A DNA stretch of 64,000 bases, taken from NCBI GenBank assembly GCA_029562645.1, contig JAKQUI010000005.1:7961-71960 (forward strand), read 5' to 3'. Origin of the DNA: Spirochaetota bacterium (GTDB taxonomy: Bacteria > Spirochaetota > UBA4802 > JAKQUI01). Within the stretch, counting starts at the first letter, position 1. Every line of letters starts with the position of its first letter. A program made the position numbers and the translations under genes. Of this stretch, positions 2,419-50,922 are shown piece by piece. Under the pieces are notes generated by a model, which was not told where the DNA came from, ran no database searches, and saw nothing but the letters and a program-made list of their open reading frames with translations.

Positions 2419-3141
2419 CTACCGGTCCTCGAGGCACTTCAATACCAGCGAGCGGAGCCCGGTATCGCCGGGATGACGCGCAACGCGCGCGGAGAGATCG
2501 TCCAGCAGCCGGTTTGACTCGCCGTCGAGATCAAGGATATAGGTCGATTCCTCCTCGTCGAGGATGTTCTCCGGCGGGCAGGCCGCGGGGTCGCCCAGGT
2601 TGATATAGGCGCGGCAGGTGAGCGGCCGCAGGGCGTAGATGGCACAGCGATCGTCCTCGTCCAAGAAGGGGCAGCGGCTGTGGAGTTGATAGAAGCCGGT
2701 GAGAACGATCTCCTCGAAATCGACCTCGCCCGCGATCTCCTGGTACTCGCCGCTCTCGAGCCTCACGGCGGATGCGGCCCGGACGCGCTCGTATTCCTCC
2801 ATCGATTCACGGCAGGCCGCAATCACCGACTCCCGGCGACGATGCGACATCCGCCGCACCGCCGCGGCGATCATGTCCGCCTCGAACGAATAGACGTCAT
2901 CGACCCAGTGGCAGCAGCAGCTCACGCAGCCGGCATGGCACTTCATCGACAGGCCCGACGCGGCGATCACCCGGCCCTGGTATTCGTCGTAGAGTCGCAG
3001 CACCGCGCGATATCCCCGCGCAATCGCCGTCATATCCGCACCGTCATGCGCGCGCGCGAGCAAGGTGCGCAGGCGTCCGGTTATCGTCCGCTGGATCTCG
3101 GCCGCCTCGGGCGGCACCGGGACATTCGGTTTCGCGGTCAT
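2419..3141 (-). CDS. YkgJ-family (UPF0153) CxxCxxCC cysteine-cluster protein
   Basis: The motif CHAGCVSCCCHW plus later C...C residues is typical of the putative Fe-S/Zn YkgJ family. Start set at Met32 of the ORF (MTAKPNV). ATGA overlap with the upstream phosphoribosyltransferase gene. Confidence 0.55.
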   Translation of the reverse strand: MTAKPNVPVPPEAAEIQRTITGRLRTLLARAHDGADMTAIARGYRAVLRLYDEYQGRVIAASGLSMKCHAGCVSCCCHWVDDVYSFEADMIAAAVRRMSHRRRESVIAACRESMEEYERVRAASAVRLESGEYQEIAGEVDFEEIVLTGFYQLHSRCPFLDEDDRCAIYALRPLTCRAYINLGDPAACPPENILDEEESTYILDLDGESNRLLDDLSARVARHPGDTGLRSLVLKCLEDR

Positions 3142-3569
3142 GCGCGGCCCACCTCCCAGAAGTACTCGACCCAGACGTCCGGTTCGACGGCCATCCCGCT
3201 CCTGATGCCGACGTCGCGCTTGGTCACCAGGCACACAACATCGAACCGCGAGCCAGGATAGAGCGAGATAATCATGTTGATGGTGTTGCCGGAGTCGTAG
3301 ATATCGTCGCAGAGAAGATACGTCCCGTCCGCGAGATCGGGCCGACGGCCGAACGTGAACGATTTCCTCTCGTGCTCCACATACGATGATATCTCTATAT
3401 CATAGATCGGAAGGCCCAGGCCGCGCGCCATGGCGCGCGAGAGCCAGTACCCGCCGCGAAGCGGGCAGAGCACGCCGTCATAGCGCGTGCCGTCGGCCCG
3501 CACCTCGCCGAGCAGGCGTTGCGCGAGCGTCTCGAACAGCTCCGATGACACGTAGAAGGTCTTCATCAT
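3138..3569 (-). CDS. purine phosphoribosyltransferase (HGPRT/XGPRT-like)
   Basis: PRPP-binding motif LLCDDIYDSGNT. About 143 aa. Start at MMKTFYV. Confidence 0.65.
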   Translation of the reverse strand: MMKTFYVSSELFETLAQRLLGEVRADGTRYDGVLCPLRGGYWLSRAMARGLGLPIYDIEISSYVEHERKSFTFGRRPDLADGTYLLCDDIYDSGNTINMIISLYPGSRFDVVCLVTKRDVGIRSGMAVEPDVWVEYFWEVGRA

Positions 3570-3645
3570 ACGGCGTGCGGTCGCGACGGGCCGCCGCCGT
3601 CGATGGGGAGCGATGGAGCCGCGGATGTCCACGATATTTTTTCAG

Positions 3646-4284
3646 CTATCGGCGCACGGTGTTACCATCGACCATAAAAACGGTAAACGACTGCCTCTCG
3701 AGAAATTCGTGCCGCGCAGCTATCCTATACCCTGCCTCGCGCAGTATCGTGATGATCCGCTCCTCGGGAACGCTGTGAAAGAGCGTGCGAAGCGATCCCG
3801 GCCGGTAATCGATGATGGCGATGCGCCCGCCGGGCCTCAGGCAACCGGCGAGCCTCCGAAAATAGGCGACCGGGTGCTCGATATGGTGAAACACATTCCG
3901 CATGAAGATGAGATCCACACCGTGCGCGGGGAGCCCCGGATCATCCGGTGTCGCATGCACGGTTTTCACGTTCCGCAGCTGCTCGCTCGCCGCCGTTTGT
4001 GAAATGATGTCGAGGAACTCCCGGTTGATGTCGACCGCGAAGACGACGCCCGCCGGCCCGGTGTCCCGCGCGAAGCGAACGGTAAAATACCCGCCGCCCG
4101 CACCGATGTCCGCGATCGCCATGCCCGGTGCGATACCAAGCGCCCGAACGACCTCGTCCGGCTTGGCGCCCGGCTCGACTGCAAGCGCATTGAAGTGGTT
4201 GGCGGAACGCTCGGCCGAACAACATGAGATGGAAAACAATGACGCCAGGAGCATTCCCAATGATGATTTTCGTATTCCGTCCAT
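3646..4284 (-). CDS. class I SAM-dependent methyltransferase, probably secreted or lipid-anchored
   Basis: Motif I DIGAGGGYFT. A post-I acidic residue (VFAVD) is present. A hydrophobic N-terminus suggests a signal peptide. Confidence 0.7.
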   Translation of the reverse strand: MDGIRKSSLGMLLASLFSISCCSAERSANHFNALAVEPGAKPDEVVRALGIAPGMAIADIGAGGGYFTVRFARDTGPAGVVFAVDINREFLDIISQTAASEQLRNVKTVHATPDDPGLPAHGVDLIFMRNVFHHIEHPVAYFRRLAGCLRPGGRIAIIDYRPGSLRTLFHSVPEERIITILREAGYRIAARHEFLERQSFTVFMVDGNTVRR

Positions 4285-4378
4285 TCCGTTTCCTCCAGGG
4301 TTACTGCGCCCCCTCCGCCTGACGGCGGAAGAGGCGCATCGTGTACAAACAATGCAGTGACGCGTTCAAGGAATTCCG

Positions 4379-4831
4379 CTACCGGCACTGCATGCGATCG
4401 TGATGCTTCCGCATCTCATCGACCACCTGCGCCTTCTGGCCGTCATCGAGCATCTCGTAGAGCTCGACGAGTTTCGTGACGTACTCCTCGAACTTCTGCG
4501 GACGTTCTTTGTGCGCCGTGAGGGCGATACGCGCGATCTTTCGCGCGTCGGGGGTGCGCTCATTCAGCTCGGCGCCGATTTCCTCGTGCACCTTCTTTCG
4601 TTTTTCGGTGAACGAAGCGAAATCCCGCTTCGCGGACGCCTTGATCTCATCGTACTTCTGTCGCTGGGCCTCGTTCAGGTTGAGCTTCTCGATCCGCGCG
4701 TCGATGCGCGCGAGCGCTTTGTCCGCGAAGTCGGCCTTGCAGAACGGCGCCCGATGGCGGCAGCCCTGCAGCGACATGAACCCTACGACGGCGACGACCG
4801 CGACGATCGGCAGAATTTTTACAAATGACAT
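4379..4831 (-). CDS. CpxP/Spy-like periplasmic protein (LTXXQ family)
   Basis: Signal peptide, then a helical Lys/Glu-rich ~130 aa body with an LNLNEAQRQKY (LTXXQ-like) motif. Start chosen at the second ATG because AGGAGG lies 6 nt upstream. The gene is divergent from a two-component system, as E. coli cpxP is from cpxRA. Confidence 0.5.
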   Translation of the reverse strand: MSFVKILPIVAVVAVVGFMSLQGCRHRAPFCKADFADKALARIDARIEKLNLNEAQRQKYDEIKASAKRDFASFTEKRKKVHEEIGAELNERTPDARKIARIALTAHKERPQKFEEYVTKLVELYEMLDDGQKAQVVDEMRKHHDRMQCR

Positions 4832-4940
4832 GATACGCCTCCTCATTTTAACTTGAAATATTTGATGCGCCGGACAATACCGTTGTGCATCATCATGCTG
4901 GAAATGTACGCACCGGGTGTGAAAAAAGTTTTTCCCGGGC

Positions 4941-4996
4941 GTAAATTCCGCGGGGTATATGTAAAAAAAGTGTAAACGCCATCGGACTATTTTTAC
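4941..4996. promoter_or_regulatory. GTAAA pentamer repeats (CpxR-box-like) in the divergent intergenic region
   Basis: GTAAA at 4941, 4961 and 4972, and TTTAC at 4992. The 4961/4972 pair is GTAAA-N6-GTAAA, against the E. coli CpxR consensus GTAAA-N5-GTAAA. Confidence 0.35.
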
Positions 4997-5011
4997 AATC
5001 CGGAAAGGACC

Positions 5012-5713
5012 ATGGATCGGAAAATTCTTATCATTGATGATGATGCGAAGTTGCAGGACCTGCTCCGCGCATATCTGTCCGACAACGGATTTGCGGTCGC
5101 ATCGCTGTTCGACGGAAACGAGGCGCTATCCGCCATCGAGAAGGAGGGACCGGACGTGGTGCTGCTGGACATCATGCTGCCGGGCAGTAACGGCCTGGAC
5201 GTTCTCCGCGCCGTTCGCGCAACGAGCTCGATTCCGGTGATTATGCTCACCGCGAAGGGAGACGACACCGACCGCATCGTGGGGCTGGAGCTCGGCGCGG
5301 ACGATTATCTCCCCAAGCCCTTCAATCCGCGGGAGCTCTTGGCGCGCATTCGAGCCGTGATGCGTCGCGCGCCGGCGCCGGGCGTCACGCCCGCTCACGA
5401 CGACGTCGCGATCATCCGGGCGGGCGGGCTGGTGCTCAATCCCGCGCTCCTGGCCCTCGAACGGGGAGCGGAGCGGACGGCGCTTTCGAAAACGGAATAT
5501 CGAATCATGGAAACGCTCATGCGCAACCCGGACCGCGTGTTCTCACGCGACGACATCATGAACGCCGCGCGCGGCCGCGATTTCATCGCATTTGAGCGCA
5601 GCATCGACGTGCACATCAGCAAGCTGCGCGCCAAGGTCGAGTCGCTCACCGGCGAGCGCGACCGCATCAAGACGGTGTGGGGCACCGGCTATCTGTTCCG
5701 GGGCGACACATGA
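5012..5713 (+). CDS. OmpR-family response regulator (REC + winged helix)
   Basis: Start MDRKILIIDDD. Phospho-acceptor Asp environment VVLLDIMLPG. C-terminal VWGTGYLFR winged-helix signature. Confidence 0.9.
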   Translation: MDRKILIIDDDAKLQDLLRAYLSDNGFAVASLFDGNEALSAIEKEGPDVVLLDIMLPGSNGLDVLRAVRATSSIPVIMLTAKGDDTDRIVGLELGADDYLPKPFNPRELLARIRAVMRRAPAPGVTPAHDDVAIIRAGGLVLNPALLALERGAERTALSKTEYRIMETLMRNPDRVFSRDDIMNAARGRDFIAFERSIDVHISKLRAKVESLTGERDRIKTVWGTGYLFRGDT

Positions 5714-7083
5714 GAATCCGCCAGCTGTATGTGAAGATGTTCCTCGCCTTCATCGGGCTGTTCCTGGTGGCGCAGTTCCTCGTCTTCGGCATGTTCCGCC
5801 ACGTCACGGGGCGGCCCCTTCACCGCGAGATGGGGGGATATCTGGAATCGTCGGTCGCACTGGTCCGCGAGCTGGTCGAGCATAAAGTTCGCGAACACCC
5901 CGATGCGTTCACGCGCGAGGTTGCGGCCCTTCGCGATTTCGTGGTGCGCCTTGGCGCGGGCTTTCAGTCGCTCGTCTGGATCGAAACGGCCGCCGGCCGC
6001 GTCGTTTATCGCTCGTCGCCCGATGCGCCGCCGCCGTCGATCCCGCGCGACCTCGTCGATCGCGGGAGCTATCAGTACCATCTCTCCATGCGGCTCGGTT
6101 CGATCGTCTACCTGCGCATCCGCGTATCGCCTCCGGGATCACCGAGCGCCACCGTGCATGTCTTCCACCGGCGTCCGCGCCCGTTCATGCACGACACGCA
6201 CTTTCTCCTCGGCCTCATCGGCATCTGCGTCCTGATGGCGCTGCTCCTGTATCCGCTCACCCGCTACATCACCCGTCCGCTCAAGCGCCTCACGCACTCG
6301 GCGCACCGCATTGCGGGCGGCGACTTCGACCAGGTCGTCGCGGTGCCGTCGAATGACGAGATCGGCGAGCTCGCGGCGGCGTTCAATACGATGGCGGAAC
6401 GGATCAGCCACATGATCCGGGGGACCCGGGAGCTCACGGCGAATGTGTCTCACGAATTACGCTCGCCGCTGGCGCGGATGCGTGTCGCGCTGGAGCTGCT
6501 CGATGCGAAGGTCCGCGACGCTCGCGCCGCCGGCGCCGGTGAGCTCATCGCGTCGATCGAGGCGGAGATCGTCGACATGGACCGGCTCATCGACCGGATC
6601 CTGGAGCTTGCGAAACTCGACCTCCGGGAGGCGGACACGCCAATCGATGCGATAGACCTCGACGCGGGCCTGAACGCCATCATCGCGAAATTCATGCCCA
6701 CGATTGAGCGCCGGCGGCTCGCCCTCACGCTGACCGGCGCCGGGGGGGCGATCGTGCGCGGAGTCCCGGACGATATCGCGACCGCGCTCGGGAACCTCGT
6801 CGACAATGCCGTGAAATACTCGCCGGAGGGAGGGGCCGTCGATATCGCCGTCACGCAATCCGACGGCGTCGTTTCGATCGCCGTCGCCAATGCCAGCCCG
6901 CCCCTCGCCGACGACGAACTCGCGGGCATCTTCGAGCCATTCGTTCGCCTCCGCCCGACGGGCGCGCCCGGCCACGGTCTCGGGTTGGCCATCGCGAAAC
7001 GGATCGTCGAGCGGCATGGCGGCAGCATTCGCGCCGAGCGCTCCGTGAATGGAATACGAATTACGATCACACTCCCCGCGTAG
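5710..7083 (+). CDS. sensor histidine kinase (two TM segments, periplasmic loop, HAMP, HisKA, HATPase_c)
   Basis: H-box ANVSHELRSPLARM. N, G1 and G2 boxes are present (DNAVKYSP, GHGLGLAIAK). ATGA overlap with the response-regulator stop. Start at MRIRQLYV. Confidence 0.85.
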   Translation: MRIRQLYVKMFLAFIGLFLVAQFLVFGMFRHVTGRPLHREMGGYLESSVALVRELVEHKVREHPDAFTREVAALRDFVVRLGAGFQSLVWIETAAGRVVYRSSPDAPPPSIPRDLVDRGSYQYHLSMRLGSIVYLRIRVSPPGSPSATVHVFHRRPRPFMHDTHFLLGLIGICVLMALLLYPLTRYITRPLKRLTHSAHRIAGGDFDQVVAVPSNDEIGELAAAFNTMAERISHMIRGTRELTANVSHELRSPLARMRVALELLDAKVRDARAAGAGELIASIEAEIVDMDRLIDRILELAKLDLREADTPIDAIDLDAGLNAIIAKFMPTIERRRLALTLTGAGGAIVRGVPDDIATALGNLVDNAVKYSPEGGAVDIAVTQSDGVVSIAVANASPPLADDELAGIFEPFVRLRPTGAPGHGLGLAIAKRIVERHGGSIRAERSVNGIRITITLPA

Positions 7084-44396: not shown

Positions 44397-45602
44397 GTGA
44401 ACCGTTCGGCCCTTTTCTGGGGCGCACTCGTTCTCATGGCGGCGGTCCCGTGGCGGGCCGTCGCCCGAGACATTAACCTCGACGAGATCTATCTGCGCAA
44501 GTCGTCGCCGGCGCTCAAGAAACTCATCCTTTATAAGCTCGACGCCTACGAGCGCGTCAACGCGCACTTCGTCGATCGCGACGCCATCTTCTCCGCGTGG
44601 ACGTCCGGCGACCAGATCGTCTACATCAAAGAACTCCCGGGCGGGAGCAATGTCGTCTACCGTTACAATCCGCATCGGCGTCGGCTCTCCGAGGCCGGTC
44701 GGTTTTCGGGCGTGGTCACCTATGCGCGCCTGAGCGGGCGCGGCCGGTACGTGTACCTCAAGCGGTTCGTGTCCGATCGCGGCATTATACCGCGACCCGG
44801 CATGGTCATTATCGATATCGCCGCCGGCCGCGTCATCGAGCGGAAATCGAACTTCCCCTTTCTCGATTTTTCTGTCGCGGCGGGATCGGACGCCCTCTAT
44901 TACGAAACGAAGCGCGGGATCGTCGAATACCATCCGGGCGGCGGCGAGGGGCGGATGATGATACCCCGCGCCGAGTACGGGGACATCGCCGTGTCGGACA
45001 ATCCGTCCGTCGGCTATCTCTCGCCCAATCTCCAGCGGGCGCTTGTCGTCAATGGCGGCGGCGGGAGCTATCGGGCGAAGCTGGTGCGGACCGCGAATCC
45101 CGTCGTCATAAAGGGCATCACCTCCGGTTCGGAGATTCACTGGCTCGACAACAACCGGGTGGCGTACCGAAAGGGCTGGACCGGGAACTTCTCGGCGGTC
45201 CTGTATGCGATCAATACCGGGAAAAGCTATCCGCTGGTCAGGCAGTCGTTTAATACGAACCTGTCGTATTCGAACAACGGGAAGAACCTCGCCATCCTCA
45301 AGGACCAGGTAATCATGCTGCACGATCTCGCGACCGGCATGACGACGAGCACGGGGCTCGAGGGCGAGGATCTTTCATTTGATCCGCATGGCAGGTACTT
45401 CACGTCGCTTCTGTTCAAAAAGCTGTTCGTTGTGGGGATTGGGACGGTGCACAACCGACGGATCGAGTTGCAGCGGGCCTGGAAAACGATCGCGCAGGTC
45501 TATGAGTCCATCAGAAACGATTCTTCTGCATTCGAAAACGAGTATTCATCGGAGTACGTAAAAAGAAAGATCGCCCTGTACCGCTCGCTCCTGAGGGATT
45601 GA
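44397..45602 (+). CDS. hypothetical secreted protein (beta-rich)
   Basis: GTG start. Signal peptide. No assignable family. Confidence 0.4.
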   Translation: MNRSALFWGALVLMAAVPWRAVARDINLDEIYLRKSSPALKKLILYKLDAYERVNAHFVDRDAIFSAWTSGDQIVYIKELPGGSNVVYRYNPHRRRLSEAGRFSGVVTYARLSGRGRYVYLKRFVSDRGIIPRPGMVIIDIAAGRVIERKSNFPFLDFSVAAGSDALYYETKRGIVEYHPGGGEGRMMIPRAEYGDIAVSDNPSVGYLSPNLQRALVVNGGGGSYRAKLVRTANPVVIKGITSGSEIHWLDNNRVAYRKGWTGNFSAVLYAINTGKSYPLVRQSFNTNLSYSNNGKNLAILKDQVIMLHDLATGMTTSTGLEGEDLSFDPHGRYFTSLLFKKLFVVGIGTVHNRRIELQRAWKTIAQVYESIRNDSSAFENEYSSEYVKRKIALYRSLLRD

Positions 45603-46124
45603 TTACTTTTTGAGTCGCGCGGTGATGGTACCCGCCATTTTTTGAATATGATGGAAGTTTGCCTCCTCATCGACGAACAGAAACACCGCGCAGTTGTCGC
45701 GGGTGACCATGACCGTTCGCGTCTTGTTGGCGCCCACGAGGGCAGAGAGTTTTTCGATCTCGTGCTTGGCTGATTTCATATCCTTGTATACGATGATATA
45801 GCAGACGATGTCATCATCGTGCGGGTTTTTCTTGTGCGCGATGACGGCGGCGTGCATGGCCAGCACCGTGGTGTGATCGCCCCCCGGATACAATTCCATG
45901 TCTTTGATTACTTTTCTGATGGCCGCGCGGTCCAACTGGGCCGGGTTGCCTTTCAGAACCCGCTTTACGCGATCGGGAAGCACACCGTAGGCAAAGTCCG
46001 CGGGGATATCGGCGTCCGTCAGCTTGATTTTGTCGATGATATCGGCGCCCACCTCGGCCGATGAATTTGCGAAGAGCAAAAAAATCGACATCAGCGCCAA
46101 AGTCCCGAAGATAGCGTATTTCAT
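45603..46124 (-). CDS. hypothetical secreted protein
   Basis: Signal peptide MKYAIFGTLALMSIFLLFANSSA. Its stop abuts the convergent gene's stop (45602/45603). Confidence 0.4.
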   Translation of the reverse strand: MKYAIFGTLALMSIFLLFANSSAEVGADIIDKIKLTDADIPADFAYGVLPDRVKRVLKGNPAQLDRAAIRKVIKDMELYPGGDHTTVLAMHAAVIAHKKNPHDDDIVCYIIVYKDMKSAKHEIEKLSALVGANKTRTVMVTRDNCAVFLFVDEEANFHHIQKMAGTITARLKK

Positions 46125-46263
46125 GGATTAGCCCCCGATAGATGAAAATGCGGAACGACGCCGCCGGCACGGGCGGAAGAAATTATGCTTGAATGAATAC
46201 ACGATATATATCGGAGTATGCGCCGCTGGCCGTGAATTTTTTTTAAGAGACATAATATTTTAA

Positions 46264-46292
46264 TTGACGGCAAGCGCGCGTACCGGTAGTAT
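46264..46292 (+). promoter_or_regulatory. sigma70-like promoter candidate for nrdD (TTGACG-N17-TAGTAT)
   Basis: Read directly from the sequence. It would give a ~200 nt leader before the ATP-cone Met. Confidence 0.3.
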
Positions 46293-46508
46293 TTTTAACA
46301 CACAGAACGCACTCCACGCATCATGTCGCGTCTTCGCTTGTCCACAGAGCGGAGTGGTTGTCGTGTTTTCGAATATTCGTCTCGGGTGGCCGTCGGTCAT
46401 CGTTCCCCGGATATTCGCGATCTCGCGACGATGCGTACGCTGCTCCGGCGGGTTTCTTTCGCCGCGTTTCGGTTCGGTCCAAGAGTTTATCGGTCGGGAG
46501 TATCCTTC

Positions 46509-48566
46509 ATGGGCGCACAGAAGAAAAAGGTACAATTCATCCGGAAGCGCGATGGGCGGATTGTTCCTTTCGACCTCGAGAAAATCGTCGATGCGATCTT
46601 CAATGCGGCGCGGGCCGTCGGCGGCGACAACCGCGACATCGCCCAGGGCGTGGCGCAGTCCGTGCGCGACATCGTCGAGATCGCTTATTGCAACGAGCGC
46701 ATTCCCACCGTCGAAAACATCCAGGACCTCGTCGAGAAGATGCTCATCGAGAAGGGCCACGCAAAGGTCGCGAAGGCCTACATTCTCTACCGCGAACAGC
46801 ACCGGAAGATCCGCGACGGCAAGGACCTCCTAAACGAGGGGATCGCACTCATAGAAAAGTATCTCGACCGATCCGACTGGCGCGTGAACGAAAACAGCAA
46901 CATGAGCTATTCGCTCCAGGGGCTCAATAATCATATCGCCTCGGCGGTCACCGCGAAGTACTGGCTCGAGCGCATCTACCCCCCGGAGATACGGGACGCG
47001 CACATCAACTGCGACGTGCATCTGCACGACCTGGGGCTCCTCTCGGCCTACTGCGTCGGGTGGGACCTCAAGGACCTTCTCCGGCGCGGATTTGGCGGCG
47101 TGCCCGGGAAGGTCGAGAGCCGCCCGGCGAAGCACTTCCGGAGCGCGCTGGGCCAGGTGGTCAATTTCTTCTACACCCTGCAAGGGGAATCGGCCGGCGC
47201 GCAGGCCTTCGCGAACTTCGATACCTATCTCGCGCCCTTCATCCGCTACGACGGGCTCACCTATGCCGAGGTGAAGCAATGCCTGCAGGAGTTCATCTTC
47301 AACATGAACATCCCCACGCGGGTGGGCTTCCAGACGCCGTTCACCAATGTTACGCTCGACCTCAAAGTGCCCAAGAACATCGGCGAGGAGTACGTCGTCA
47401 TCGGCGGCGAGGTGCGCGACCGGCAGTACAAGGAATTCCAGGAAGAGATGAACATCTTCAACCGCGCCTTCGCCGAGAGCCTGCTCGAGGGTGATGCGCG
47501 GCACCGCATCTTCACCTTTCCCATACCGACCTACAATATCGGCGCGGACTTCGACTGGAACAATCCGGCGCTCACGACCCTGTGGGAGATCACGGCGAAG
47601 TACGGCATACCCTATTTCGCGAATTTCGTAAACTCCGACATGGACCCGGAGGACGCGCGCTCGATGTGCTGCCGCCTGCGCCTGGATAATCGCGAGCTTC
47701 GAAGCCGCGGCGGCGGGCTCTTTGGCGCGAACCCGCTCACCGGCAGCATCGGCGTGGTCACGATCAACATGCCGCGCCTTGGATTCAAGGCGGCGAGCGA
47801 GGACGAGTTCCTCGAGTCGCTGGGGCGCCTCATGGACATGGCGAAGTCGTCCCTGGAGATAAAGCGCAAGGTGCTGGAAAACTTCACGCAGAGCAATCTC
47901 TACCCGTACACCCGGTATTATCTGGCCGATGTGTACAACCGCACCGGAAAGTTCTGGGTGAACCATTTCTCGACCATCGGCCTGGTGGGAATGAACGAGG
48001 CCTGCATCAACCTCATCGGGAAGGACATCTCGACGGAGGAGGGCAAGGCCTTCACGGTGCGCGTTCTCGATATGATGCGCGACCGCATCGCGTCCTATCA
48101 GGAGGAATCCGGGAACCTGTACAACCTCGAAGCGACACCGGCCGAGGGCGTGAGTTACCGGTTCGCGAAACACGACCGCGACACGTTCCCCGATATCGTC
48201 ACCGCGGGGGCCGGAGAGCCGTATTATACCAATTCGATCCATCTGCCGGTCGGGTATTCGGACGACGTCTTCGAGGTCCTGGACCACCAAAACGAGCTCC
48301 AGGCCAGGTTTACGGGCGGGACGGTGGTGCACTGCTTCATCGGCGAGAAAATCGACGATCCGAACATCGTAAAGCTGTTGATCCGCAAAATCACCGAAAA
48401 CTACTCGATACCGTATTTCACCATCACCCCGACCTTCAGCGTGTGCCCCGTGCACGGGTACATACCCGGATCGCACAAGTTTTGCCCCTACGATCACACG
48501 GACGAGGAGCTGGAGCGGTTCGGCATCGAGGCGCCCGCGGCGGGCGATAAAAAAGTGGCGATGTAG
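46509..48566 (+). CDS. nrdD: anaerobic (class III) ribonucleoside-triphosphate reductase, large body without the glycyl-radical segment
   Basis: N-terminal ATP-cone (KRDGRIVPFDLEKIVDAI). Class III core. C-terminal Cys/His pair CPVHGY...CPYDH, then an in-frame TAG. Start moved to Met63 of the track ORF, at the ATP-cone. Confidence 0.85.
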   Translation: MGAQKKKVQFIRKRDGRIVPFDLEKIVDAIFNAARAVGGDNRDIAQGVAQSVRDIVEIAYCNERIPTVENIQDLVEKMLIEKGHAKVAKAYILYREQHRKIRDGKDLLNEGIALIEKYLDRSDWRVNENSNMSYSLQGLNNHIASAVTAKYWLERIYPPEIRDAHINCDVHLHDLGLLSAYCVGWDLKDLLRRGFGGVPGKVESRPAKHFRSALGQVVNFFYTLQGESAGAQAFANFDTYLAPFIRYDGLTYAEVKQCLQEFIFNMNIPTRVGFQTPFTNVTLDLKVPKNIGEEYVVIGGEVRDRQYKEFQEEMNIFNRAFAESLLEGDARHRIFTFPIPTYNIGADFDWNNPALTTLWEITAKYGIPYFANFVNSDMDPEDARSMCCRLRLDNRELRSRGGGLFGANPLTGSIGVVTINMPRLGFKAASEDEFLESLGRLMDMAKSSLEIKRKVLENFTQSNLYPYTRYYLADVYNRTGKFWVNHFSTIGLVGMNEACINLIGKDISTEEGKAFTVRVLDMMRDRIASYQEESGNLYNLEATPAEGVSYRFAKHDRDTFPDIVTAGAGEPYYTNSIHLPVGYSDDVFEVLDHQNELQARFTGGTVVHCFIGEKIDDPNIVKLLIRKITENYSIPYFTITPTFSVCPVHGYIPGSHKFCPYDHTDEELERFGIEAPAAGDKKVAM

Positions 48567-48611
48567 CGCTTCATTGAATCGATAATATATAAAATGGGAA
48601 AGGAGAGGCAT

Positions 48612-48797
48612 ATGAAACAGAAAAAGCAGGTTCCCGTAGAGGTCTACTCCCGCGTGGTGGGATACTTTCGCCCGGTCAACCAGTGGAACAAGGGGAAACG
48701 GGAAGAGTTCAACGACAGGAAGGAATACGCATTACACAGCATCATGCGGGCGACGAGCAATGAATTTCAAGGGCATACACAAAACGTCGCTCATTGA
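48612..48797 (+). CDS. glycyl-radical segment of NrdD as a separate small ORF (or read-through extension)
   Basis: SRVVGYFRPVNQWNKGKREEFNDRKEY matches the NrdD radical-glycine motif (RVCGY...N.GKQ.E...R). AGGAGAGG lies 4 nt upstream of ATG 48612. It is in the same frame as nrdD, separated from it by one TAG. Confidence 0.5.
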   Translation: MKQKKQVPVEVYSRVVGYFRPVNQWNKGKREEFNDRKEYALHSIMRATSNEFQGHTQNVAH

Positions 48798-49458
48798 TTA
48801 TCCCGGCAAGATTTGCTCGATACTGTTCACCGGCGGCTGCAATCTGCGGTGCCGGTACTGTTACAATCCGGACCTGGCGTGCAATAACTGCGCGCTCGAG
48901 ACGCTGACGAACGAGGAGACCTTCTCGTTCGTCGAGCGCCGCAGGCATTTCATCGACGGGGTGTCAATCAGCGGCGGTGAGCCCACCCTGGCGAAAAACC
49001 TCGACAGCTTCATCAAGTCCGTGAAGGATATCTCGCTTTCCGTAAAGCTCGATACCAATGGATCGAACCCGGAGGTCATCAAGCGGCTCATTGAAAAAGG
49101 CCTGCTCGACTACGTCGCCATCGACGTGAAGACCTCTCCGTCGAAATATGATTTTCTCACCGGAACAACGTTTCGATTCGCAGACATCGTGAAAACCATC
49201 TCGATCGTGCGAGACGCCGGCATCGATTATGAGATCCGGACCACCTGCATCCCGTTTTTCGTCACGCTGGACGATTTCGTAGCGATCAAGCGCGAGATCG
49301 GGCGCGTGAAACAGTATTATTTACAGCAGTTCGTGAACAGCAAAACGCTCGATGACGATGTGGCGAATTATCAACCCTACCCCGCCGAGGAGCTCCATCG
49401 CTTCCGTGAGTTCGTATTGAGCTTTGCGGACCTGTGCGAGATTCGCGGACTGTCGTAA
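48760..49458 (+). CDS. nrdG: anaerobic ribonucleotide reductase activating protein (radical SAM)
   Basis: GCNLRCRYCYNP CxxxCxxC motif near the N-terminus. About 232 aa. Confidence 0.85.
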   Translation: MNFKGIHKTSLIDYPGKICSILFTGGCNLRCRYCYNPDLACNNCALETLTNEETFSFVERRRHFIDGVSISGGEPTLAKNLDSFIKSVKDISLSVKLDTNGSNPEVIKRLIEKGLLDYVAIDVKTSPSKYDFLTGTTFRFADIVKTISIVRDAGIDYEIRTTCIPFFVTLDDFVAIKREIGRVKQYYLQQFVNSKTLDDDVANYQPYPAEELHRFREFVLSFADLCEIRGLS

Positions 49459-49476
49459 CCGCACACACCACGATTA

Positions 49477-49761
49477 TCACCGGCGCTTCGGTTGCGAATA
49501 CAGCCGGCACCGTCCCATGCAATTCGTGAACATCGTGTCGCAGATGGCGATCGCGCGATCACCGCGCTTGCCCTCGTAGTTGAACGCGCGCTCGCGGCAC
49601 GTCCAAAATTTCTGCGTGCAGCGGTCTTCGCACAACCGTCCCCGATCGACGCTGGAGAAGAGGGCGGCGCCGGACAGGGGAAGGAGGATCGCGACCGTCG
49701 CGATGGCGATCGTCAGCGCGGACGAACGCGCCGGTGATCTGTGTGAACTGGTTTCCATCAT
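49477..49761 (-). CDS. small secreted cysteine-rich protein
   Basis: Hydrophobic N-terminus (ALTIAIATVAILLPLSGAALFSS), then a 55 aa region with 7 Cys. No family assignment. Confidence 0.35.
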   Translation of the reverse strand: MMETSSHRSPARSSALTIAIATVAILLPLSGAALFSSVDRGRLCEDRCTQKFWTCRERAFNYEGKRGDRAIAICDTMFTNCMGRCRLYSQPKRR

Positions 49762-49905
49762 GCTTCACTCGGGTAGATCTTACCGAGCCGTTGCGATGCA
49801 TTCAATAAAAAATTGGTCCAACCGCAGTAATAATTTTCCAGATGTTGTTTCCAGGAATTGATCAGGGTACTGTGCGAACGGGATGCAACTGTTATCACAC
49901 AAATC

Positions 49906-50922
49906 TCATTTCTTGATTAGCTTCGCCTTGCGGTCCGACAGTGTGATTGTGGCGATTTTCCCCGAGTTAAACTCGATGAAGTCGCTTTCCGTCCCGTCGC
50001 TAAAGATGATGCCGTTGCGCCCCATCAGGGACGTTACCACCAGGGGATCCCCCGTCGTGATTTTACCGAATGTGATGTCCGTCTTCGAGGTTTTGCTCTC
50101 GAAGGGCTCTCGCACGCTGAAAAAGAGATGGTTCGCATCCCAGGGAAATCTGCTCTGCTCCTTCGCGGGCTTCGCGTTGTCGAATCCGGAGGATATCCTC
50201 CGCGCACCCTCGACTATCGAACGGAACCATCCGGTGGAGCCACACCCCGTAGAGACGATGATACCGCTCGACGATTGGTATTCCTCCCTGCCCATGAAGC
50301 TCACATTGCACCTGAATGAGGTGTGGGTCCGCGGGCCGATGAAGATGTCGTTCACGCCGTGGATTGTCTGCCCGTCGTTGAGCGAGGCTTTTGCGATGGT
50401 GATGGCAGACACGCCGAACTCCCCGCTCACGATGCGTCTGAAATGATGATTGAAATCCCCCACCGTGAAGGGAAGGAGCACGCCGTCGTAGCGTGCGGGA
50501 TCTGGATTGACGGCTACGATCGGCTGTTCGCTCAGGTACTTGGCGATATTGATTACCAGACCGTCCTGCCTCAGGGCGATCACCAGGTCCTTTTCGCCGA
50601 AAAGAAAAGTGGGGAGGTAACTCCAATCGATATGCTGAACATTGATTCCCGCGGGGATGGCCGACTGAAGGTTCTTCAATGCTTCCTTGTACGCACTGTC
50701 CGCCAGGCTGATCTCGTCGAACTCCGATTTAACTTGATGCGCCTGGATGTTTTTTGCGCTTCCTGCTTTTTTCTGCGTCGATTGCGCGTTGACGGGAGCC
50801 GCGGCCTGCGCCGCCTGCGCCAGGTAGAATTTCGCCTGCGACTTCGTCGCGAAGGCGCGGACCAGCTGGTCCATCTGCGTCTCCTTCGTGACGATGACGA
50901 TCTTGTCGAAGGCGCTCGTCAT
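49906..50922 (-). CDS. atypical NAD-kinase-like protein (GGDGT replaced)
   Basis: C-terminal IIVSTGCGSTGWFRS matches the NAD kinase motif DGlivSTptGSTAYslSAgGP. The N-terminal DLVIALRQDGL occupies the GGDGT position. ATGA overlap with the upstream SPFH gene. Confidence 0.45.
   Translation of the reverse strand: MTSAFDKIVIVTKETQMDQLVRAFATKSQAKFYLAQAAQAAAPVNAQSTQKKAGSAKNIQAHQVKSEFDEISLADSAYKEALKNLQSAIPAGINVQHIDWSYLPTFLFGEKDLVIALRQDGLVINIAKYLSEQPIVAVNPDPARYDGVLLPFTVGDFNHHFRRIVSGEFGVSAITIAKASLNDGQTIHGVNDIFIGPRTHTSFRCNVSFMGREEYQSSSGIIVSTGCGSTGWFRSIVEGARRISSGFDNAKPAKEQSRFPWDANHLFFSVREPFESKTSKTDITFGKITTGDPLVVTSLMGRNGIIFSDGTESDFIEFNSGKIATITLSDRKAKLIKK

Follow-up and report, generated by a model that had tools for sequence, protein, structure and literature searches.

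A putative two-piece class III ribonucleotide reductase with a separately encoded glycyl-radical protein in a Spirochaetota bacterium

Split and spare-part systems described so far

In glycyl radical enzymes, the radical is assumed to reside at the C-terminal end of the catalytic chain, and the sole exception known is the spare part GrcA/YfiD of pyruvate formate-lyase. Here, we describe an nrdD locus of a Spirochaetota bacterium (NCBI GenBank assembly GCA_029562645.1, contig JAKQUI010000005.1, positions 7,961 to 71,960 of the forward strand; this stretch of 64,000 nucleotides (nt) is referred to as the window) in which the catalytic chain of an anaerobic (class III) ribonucleotide reductase (RNR) and the radical glycine are found on different open reading frames (ORFs). 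A gene for a 685-amino-acid (aa) NrdD body without a glycyl-radical loop is followed by a small ORF for a 61-aa protein that carries this loop, and then by nrdG, the gene for the activating enzyme. We consider it very probable that this class III RNR is encoded as two polypeptides, a 685-aa body and a 61-aa radical protein.

The locus has much in common with those of the canonical single-chain class III RNRs of T4, E. coli, T. maritima and P. copri: an ATP-cone, the NRDD barrel, a Cys residue in the finger loop, an element resembling a zinc ribbon, the radical-glycine motif RVxGY with NxGK behind it, and a neighbouring gene for NrdG, a radical S-adenosylmethionine (SAM) activase. It differs from them in that the counterpart of the final ~35 residues of an ordinary NrdD, including the radical glycine, resides on a separate 61-aa chain with its own start, in that the final zinc ligand is present as C-x3-H instead of the canonical C-x2-C, and in that the small ORF overlaps nrdG. 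When the features of a class III NrdD are considered one by one, the profile match, the finger-loop Cys and the adjacent NrdG are all present, whereas a glycine motif on the same chain is not.

Small stand-alone proteins with a glycyl-radical loop have been described before; the closest analogue is GrcA/YfiD, and T4 Y06I is of the same type. YfiD has been shown experimentally to supply the radical in trans to a core of pyruvate formate-lyase (PFL) without its own loop; it is activated by the activase of PFL, and this occurs only when it is bound to the cleaved PFL (PMC8683613). The enzyme that GrcA serves as a spare part normally possesses a fused domain, whereas the NrdD body studied here is devoid of the loop in all 78 loci that we could assess; because the body never has a glycine loop of its own, the small protein would be obligatory. 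Furthermore, GrcA is homologous to the C-terminus of PFL (Gly_radical), while the small protein matches only the C-terminus of NrdD (PF13597). A review from 2026 names the formate lyases as the sole class of glycyl radical enzymes with known spare-part proteins (PMC13450708), and the question of whether other glycyl radical enzymes have an equivalent of GrcA/YfiD has been raised explicitly in the field (PMC8683613; PMC13450708).

Among the RNRs themselves, the nearest precedent is the split class II enzyme NrdJa/NrdJb of Pseudomonas aeruginosa and other Proteobacteria, which is likewise encoded by two consecutive operon genes with the C-terminal module placed on the second chain, and which has been termed the only split RNR found outside the viruses (PMC4520616). 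However, this enzyme belongs to the B12-dependent class, and NrdJb (229 aa) bears the redox-active C-terminus and not a radical. The interrupted nrdD genes of phages (T4, phiAS4, 949, c-st) are also annotated as two or more coding pieces, but their breaks lie at various positions, originate from group I introns, inteins or homing endonucleases, and the pieces are either spliced or of unknown function (PMC3653736); the paper describing them makes no mention of the glycyl radical. In contrast, the locus studied here and its relatives have one conserved break 5' of the glycine loop, no intervening element and an independent ribosome-binding site. A search of the full-text literature, from whose coverage most papers in subscription journals are absent, did not turn up any account of an NrdD whose glycyl-radical part is split off as a protein of its own, and within the literature covered a two-piece class III RNR thus appears to be undescribed.

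The catalytic chain and the 61-aa protein

The nrdD body (46509..48566; plus strand, as are the other parts of these genes and the spacer below) is read from ATG 46509, and its coding part extends to position 48563, where its 685-aa product ends with ...GDKKVAM in front of the TAG stop codon 48564-48566. Gene callers yielded an identical 685-aa product in four assemblies. The protein matches the Pfam family NRDD (PF13597) with 594.9 bits over model positions 1-528 of 562, NCBIfam NF006126 with 1028 bits (cut-off 548) over positions 3-652 of 684, and TIGR02487 with 511 bits (cut-off 326), and it was aligned to the T. maritima NrdD structure 4coi (residues 100-626). No glycyl-radical motif precedes the TAG codon. 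A preliminary description of this DNA had reported that the body ends before the radical motif and that the motif is located in the small ORF downstream, and sequence and profiles agree on both counts.

Apart from the missing loop, the body has the hallmarks of a catalytic NrdD chain. Its residues 10-99 (46536..46805) form an ATP-cone allosteric domain (PF03477, E = 1.6e-23), and the presumed thiyl-radical site of the finger loop is provided by Cys387-Cys388 within the motif SMCCRLRLD (47667..47672). These two residues (SMCCRL) are invariant across an alignment of split and fused homologues, and their assignment to the finger loop is an inference from homology with published NrdD structures; in the structural model discussed below, this region has low confidence, with predicted local distance difference test (pLDDT) values of 51-63. 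In the outgroup bodies from WOR-3 and TA06 (the loci L068, L070 and L072 and similar ones), a charged insertion of ~20-30 residues, for example RRSEKIQLNLLSNKDSFQEHKQEKHPKRS, follows DNRELK just past the Cys-Cys motif; the protein from the window does not have such an insertion.

The zinc-ribbon-like element, read from the sequence as C646-x2-H649 ... C659-x3-H663 (48444..48497), stays on the body, and the pattern CP[VI]HGY...CPxxH is kept in the loci from Spirochaetota. This four-ligand pattern is a putative zinc ribbon. The preliminary description regarded the usual four-Cys ribbon as reduced to Cys/His/Cys/His; the pattern itself stands, but the second ligand is not unusual, as many fused relatives read CPxHGY...CPxC-x3-5-EVYSRVVGY and would hence have C/H/C/C ligands. 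A His at the second ligand position is common in NrdD relatives, and it is only the last ligand (C-x3-H) that is particular to the lineage of the window. The C-terminal tail of the body (48498..48563) comprises, in an alignment of the tails across loci, a conserved helix (T-x-EEL-x-x-F/Y-G-I/V-E) and, behind it, a variable end.

Downstream of the TAG codon, the same frame continues with nine sense codons (RFIESIIYK), an ATG at 48594 and a second ATG at 48612. The AT-rich spacer of 45 nt (48567..48611) contains the Shine-Dalgarno sequence AGGAGAGG at 48601-48608, measured as 3 nt 5' of ATG 48612 and not 4 nt, as had been stated. We favour ATG 48612 over ATG 48594 as the probable start codon because the starts of homologues, the position of the Shine-Dalgarno sequence and independent gene calls (P0001, 61 aa) all point to it. 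The resulting ORF (48612..48797, stop codon TGA 48795-48797) encodes a 61-aa protein, the putative glycyl-radical subunit, which carries SRVVGYFRPVNQWNKGK within the longer motif stretch SRVVGYFRPVNQWNKGKREEFNDRKEY; its radical glycine is Gly17 (codon 48660-48662).

The small ORF matches PF13597 NRDD over model positions 531-562 of 562 with 40.1 bits (cut-off 26.2) and NF006126 over positions 649-683 of 684, and residues 8-39 of its product were aligned to residues 612-643 of the T. maritima NrdD. Because these matches and those of the body cover non-overlapping stretches of NRDD, they confirm, as far as profiles can tell, that the two ORFs represent complementary parts of one NrdD. In a Pfam search with the small ORF, NRDD was the sole match at E <= 0.1, and no match to the PFL-type Gly_radical family was obtained; neither Pfam nor NCBIfam holds a dedicated model for a stand-alone glycyl-radical protein. 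The break is positioned 3' of both zinc-ribbon-like knuckles and of the short helix T-x-EEL-x-x-F-G-I-E, and 5' of the β-strand PVEVYS that enters the glycine loop. Since the break sits before this strand, the small protein is predicted to consist only of the strand, the glycine loop (SRVVG17Y) and a short C-terminal helix. About 40 codons lie between the last profile-matched residue of the body (667) and the first one of the small ORF (13).

An AlphaFold2 (AF2) model of an artificial fusion of body and small protein, calculated with a multiple sequence alignment (MSA) of fused, body-only and small-protein rows, reached a pLDDT of 91.7 and a predicted template modelling score (pTM) of 0.88. 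The segment with the glycine loop has values of 92-96, while the junction formed by the tail of the body and the N-terminus of the small protein is disordered (58-73); residues 665-670 are helical, and the confidence drops to this low range over residues 671-690. The best structural matches of the model are class III RNRs, and the model is consistent with a docking of the small protein in the canonical position. A single-sequence AF2 model of the concatenated proteins was uninformative (pLDDT 35.7), and a search of the PDB with the last 100 residues of the body alone gave chance matches only.

Conservation of the split and rival explanations

The body was used to scan one genome per species, which yielded 80 loci; the relevant region is present in 78 of them, from at least five phyla, and the following counts refer to these 78 loci. 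The bodies from Spirochaetota/Leptospirales metagenome-assembled genomes (MAGs) are 73-82% identical to that of the window, and those from WOR-3, Thermodesulfobacteriota, TA06 and Bacteroidales MAGs 60-66%. Without exception, the body stops before the motif, and SR(V/I)xGY is found in an ORF of its own that starts with ATG and encodes 48-65 aa. The manner in which the two ORFs are arranged varies widely: the body ends with TAA in 57 loci, with TAG in 13 and with TGA in eight; relative to the body, the small ORF occupies frame 0 in 26 loci, frame +1 in 29 and frame +2 in 23; and its start is spaced from the stop codon of the body by anything between -46 and +369 nt. In 71 loci, a Shine-Dalgarno-like 4-mer is located in front of the ATG of the small ORF. 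It is this conservation of the split with any stop codon, in any frame and with variable spacing that leads us to regard it as genuine, and the first option of the preliminary description, in which the class III RNR is truly split and its radical-bearing mini-subunit is translated on its own, receives strong support from the arrangement in all 78 loci.

The small ORF also has the signature of a translated gene. Over its 26-codon core, the mean pairwise identity at codon positions 1, 2 and 3 is 0.876, 0.926 and 0.452, respectively (76 loci), and because the third position is far less conserved than the first two, these values show what should be a translated and constrained reading frame under purifying selection. 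A homology search with the small ORF retrieved 896 protein clusters; the best 120 of them are all stand-alone proteins of 49-84 aa with a match to PF13597, and many of these originate from Spirochaetota MAGs. Hence, the conserved family of small ORFs with the radical motif, whose absence would have spoken against a split arrangement, does exist.

In the window, body and small ORF share one frame and have a single TAG as the only stop codon between them, an arrangement that would permit UAG to be read through or recoded by pyrrolysine or a suppressor tRNA, giving one chain of ~762 residues. Some low-level spontaneous read-through is possible. As a designed mechanism, which the preliminary description had listed as its second option, it is contradicted by the relatives and very unlikely: their equivalent stop is mostly TAA (57 loci) or else TGA (eight), in 52 of the 78 loci the frame of the small ORF differs from that of the body, and 14 of the 26 loci with an in-frame arrangement carry two to six in-frame stops. 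Moreover, TAG is the terminator of 12 of the 46 long ORFs in the window, no tRNA gene is present within its 64 kb, and the spacer is AT-rich and non-conserved and contains a Shine-Dalgarno motif. A single in-frame TAG between the body and the small ORF occurs in only three of the 78 loci, that of the window included. Thus, of the two features whose conservation had been left to be checked among relatives, the separate ATG is universal and the TAG is not; because stop codon, frame and spacing all vary in the relatives, the in-frame TAG of the window is incidental, a coincidence of its lineage.

The same data bear on the third option, that the TAG at 48564-48566 goes back to a recent nonsense mutation or a sequencing error, and on the related possibilities of an assembly error or a decaying pseudogene. 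Nothing speaks for any of these beyond the fact that a stop codon is located inside what is usually a single gene, and we reject them as extremely unlikely. The ~40 extra codons between the matched residues 667 and 13 could not result from a point change, the split is kept in all 78 loci at 60-82% protein identity, and both parts are under purifying selection. In addition, the exact 61-aa protein and its locus are found in many independent assemblies, and the four assemblies that were compared have an identical TAG and spacer, although over 8.2 kb they carry 0-42 substitutions relative to the window.

NrdD relatives very often contain inteins, and one could therefore envision that the two products are joined by trans-splicing of a split intein, or that the ribosome bypasses the gap or shifts frame across it. 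Among the closest relatives of the body (P0121-P0270), many have 1000-1879 aa and match the family in two to four separate stretches, from which the presence of one to three inteins in each gene can be deduced. At the locus under study, however, a Pfam search gave no match to an intein or Hint domain in either the tail of the body or the small ORF, and the ends that match no profile, a tail of 18 aa and a head of ~7 aa, are of insufficient length and too variable for such an element. Spacers from -46 to +369 nt, together with an individual ATG for each small ORF that is usually preceded by a Shine-Dalgarno-like motif, argue against both splicing and bypass, as does a phage-like locus in which two other genes separate the body from the small ORF (L085, see below). 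We see hardly any likelihood for either mechanism.

In several Thermodesulfobacteriota and related MAGs (L069, L071, L074, L077, L078), the body and the small ORF overlap by 31-46 nt. In these loci, the body ends in a tail (..QQKKRELEE..) and the small protein begins with a stretch (..LEIAKIEEELKQV..) that both resemble charged heptad helices; as a pair, they might clamp the two subunits together in a coiled coil, and several body-only representatives possess tails similar to the ..QQKKRELEE.. type.

The third gene of the locus, nrdG (48760..49458), encodes a radical-SAM activase of 232 aa that matches TIGR02495 (NrdG2) with 203 bits (cut-off 131), as well as PF04055 and PF13353. As the preliminary description had noted, its start is overlapped in another frame by the 3' end of the small ORF; the overlap amounts to 38 nt (48760..48797), with nrdG in the +1 frame. 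Of the 65 loci that were scored in this respect, 62 have an overlap of 23, 38 or 50 nt, and nrdG occupies the +1 frame in every one of these; the overlaps suggest a translational coupling of the radical carrier with its activase. Read in the other frame, the codons for the NrdG N-terminus MN(I/F)(K/R)G yield the tail ..EYQGN.. of the small protein, and the overlap thus explains why this tail is conserved.

A terminator scan found no terminator between the body, the small ORF and nrdG, and terminator-like matches occur only in the leader, the ~380 nt non-coding region (46125-46508) 5' of nrdD. This leader contains an AT-rich stretch and a promoter-like site (46264-46292). The palindrome-like sequence ACACGATATATATCG near position 46198 was considered as an NrdR box and rejected, as it does not match the consensus within three mismatches. 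An Rfam scan of positions 45500-50000 gave no match.

Distribution, proposed function and significance

The split occurs in many uncultured bacteria and phages. Among the 150 nearest representatives of clusters formed at 50% identity, 61 relatives of the body are body-only proteins in which the zinc-ribbon region is followed by the end of the chain without a glycine motif, 55 are fused, five end within the zinc-ribbon region, and 29 are fragments or other forms. In a neighbour-joining tree of a 235-residue segment of the barrel, split forms intermingle with fused ones, and the Fitch minimum amounts to 20 changes; this tree is crude and poorly resolved, and we conclude from it only that the split forms do not constitute one clean clade. 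In some relatives, the glycine loop is followed by a glutaredoxin/thioredoxin-like domain (..TCPNCK..), and others are direct fusions to NrdG (P0160, P0166, P0173, P0183, P0217, P0218, P0209, P0221; P0181, P0212). Judged from these sequences, the C-terminal end of NrdD relatives is modular and can be fused, split or extended.

In the viral sequences of IMG/VR, 71 of the 74 classifiable loci matching the small protein carry the motif in a stand-alone ORF, defined as a stop-to-stop ORF of fewer than 160 codons. A phage-like scaffold with genes for MazG and DnaB nearby (L085; ENA ERZ28581318 scaffold_212, 2501-6523) encodes, in this order, the body, a DUF7487 protein (353 aa), nrdG and a 61-aa glycyl-radical ORF; the small gene would here be an independent cistron that is located 3' of the activase and does not adjoin the body. 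In the locus of another distant body-only representative (L087), a 50-aa glycyl-radical ORF is found directly 3' of the body. A tblastn search of annotated phage genomes gave only three matches, two of which were inspected: the PhiF1 protein is fused, and that of the archaeal virus ANMV-1 (KP703175.1, AJP62049.1, L090:3177-3611) is a stand-alone protein of 144 aa with a CxxC...CPKC zinc ribbon and an NrdD-type glycine loop (EMYSRIVGYLRPVNQWNKGK). No NrdD body is encoded within 3.5 kb of this gene, and the ANMV-1 protein could be a true spare part for the NrdD of the host.

This raises the question of whether the 61-aa protein itself is a GrcA-like spare part for a single-chain NrdD encoded elsewhere, with the adjacent body being inactive or otherwise employed. 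Stand-alone glycyl-radical proteins serve PFL in just this manner, the ANMV-1 protein offers a possible parallel, and our view of the genome is limited to the window. We nevertheless consider such a role unlikely: the body keeps all other NrdD hallmarks at full score, including the invariant Cys-Cys loop; it is conserved like a functional enzyme, at 60-82% identity across phyla; and it always forms one operon of overlapping genes with the small ORF and nrdG. A body without a radical source would be useless, and the adjacent gene provides the simplest partner.

We suggest instead that the two polypeptides jointly constitute the enzyme. The body would contribute the ATP-cone, the catalytic barrel with the Cys-Cys finger loop and the zinc-ribbon-like element, and the 61-aa protein would dock non-covalently into the barrel at the place taken by the fused C-terminus in other NrdD proteins. 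NrdG, co-translated through the gene overlap, would then take the alpha-hydrogen from Gly17, probably from the body-bound peptide, by analogy with YfiD and the cleaved PFL, and the glycyl radical would generate a thiyl radical on the finger loop, as it does in the single-chain NrdD. The small protein would accordingly be an obligate and replaceable radical subunit. A plausible benefit is that the cleavage by oxygen at the radical glycine would cost the cell a replaceable 7-kDa peptide and not a 78-kDa enzyme, and a free loop may be easier for the activase to access.

Several points weigh against the assignment of the body and the small protein to one two-subunit enzyme. The translation of the small ORF, the formation of a complex and its activity are predictions from sequences and a model. 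The docking seen in the AF2 model is not independent of homology, given the fused rows in the MSA, and largely restates it. In one distant locus (L088; ENA ERZ28593092 scaffold_15224), a 655-aa body-only NrdD (P0194) is followed by ~780 nt without a called gene (4468-5253), and no glycyl-radical ORF is present within 2.5 kb on either side of the body; its radical subunit, if any, would be encoded elsewhere. The window represents 64 kb of the genome, and a complete single-chain NrdD might be encoded in another part of it. Finally, the advantage in repairing oxygen damage and the order of docking and activation are drawn from analogy, and our confidence in the former is much lower than in the two-polypeptide explanation.

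A bolder variant of the two-polypeptide arrangement, which we find conceivable but rather doubtful, is that the 61-aa protein serves as an exchangeable radical cartridge. It would then be a true separate radical subunit, comparable in its logic to the alpha/beta organization of class I RNRs, that NrdG loads possibly before or during docking, and the swapping of spent or oxygen-cleaved peptides would provide oxygen resilience to both the organisms and the phages. If this were the case, the interleaved tree of split and fused forms and the fusions of NrdD with glutaredoxin or NrdG would mark the glycyl-radical loop as an evolutionarily mobile module. Likewise, body-less stand-alone copies such as that of ANMV-1 could be spare parts for the NrdD of the host, the first such proteins outside the formate lyases.

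A natural two-piece class III RNR that is widespread in uncultured bacteria and phages would answer the question of whether glycyl radical enzymes other than the formate lyases have an equivalent of the spare-part proteins. It would also be a tractable system for studying how the activase gains access to a loop that usually lies hidden inside the barrel, and it may allow the chemistry of strict anaerobes to tolerate transient oxygen. Body-only NrdD proteins would not be pseudogene products, and the ORFs of 50-65 aa that are labelled as hypothetical proteins or NrdD fragments would represent functional subunits. Surveys of RNRs that filter on length or on a C-terminal glycine motif will, in our view, misclassify a large share of the NrdD family.

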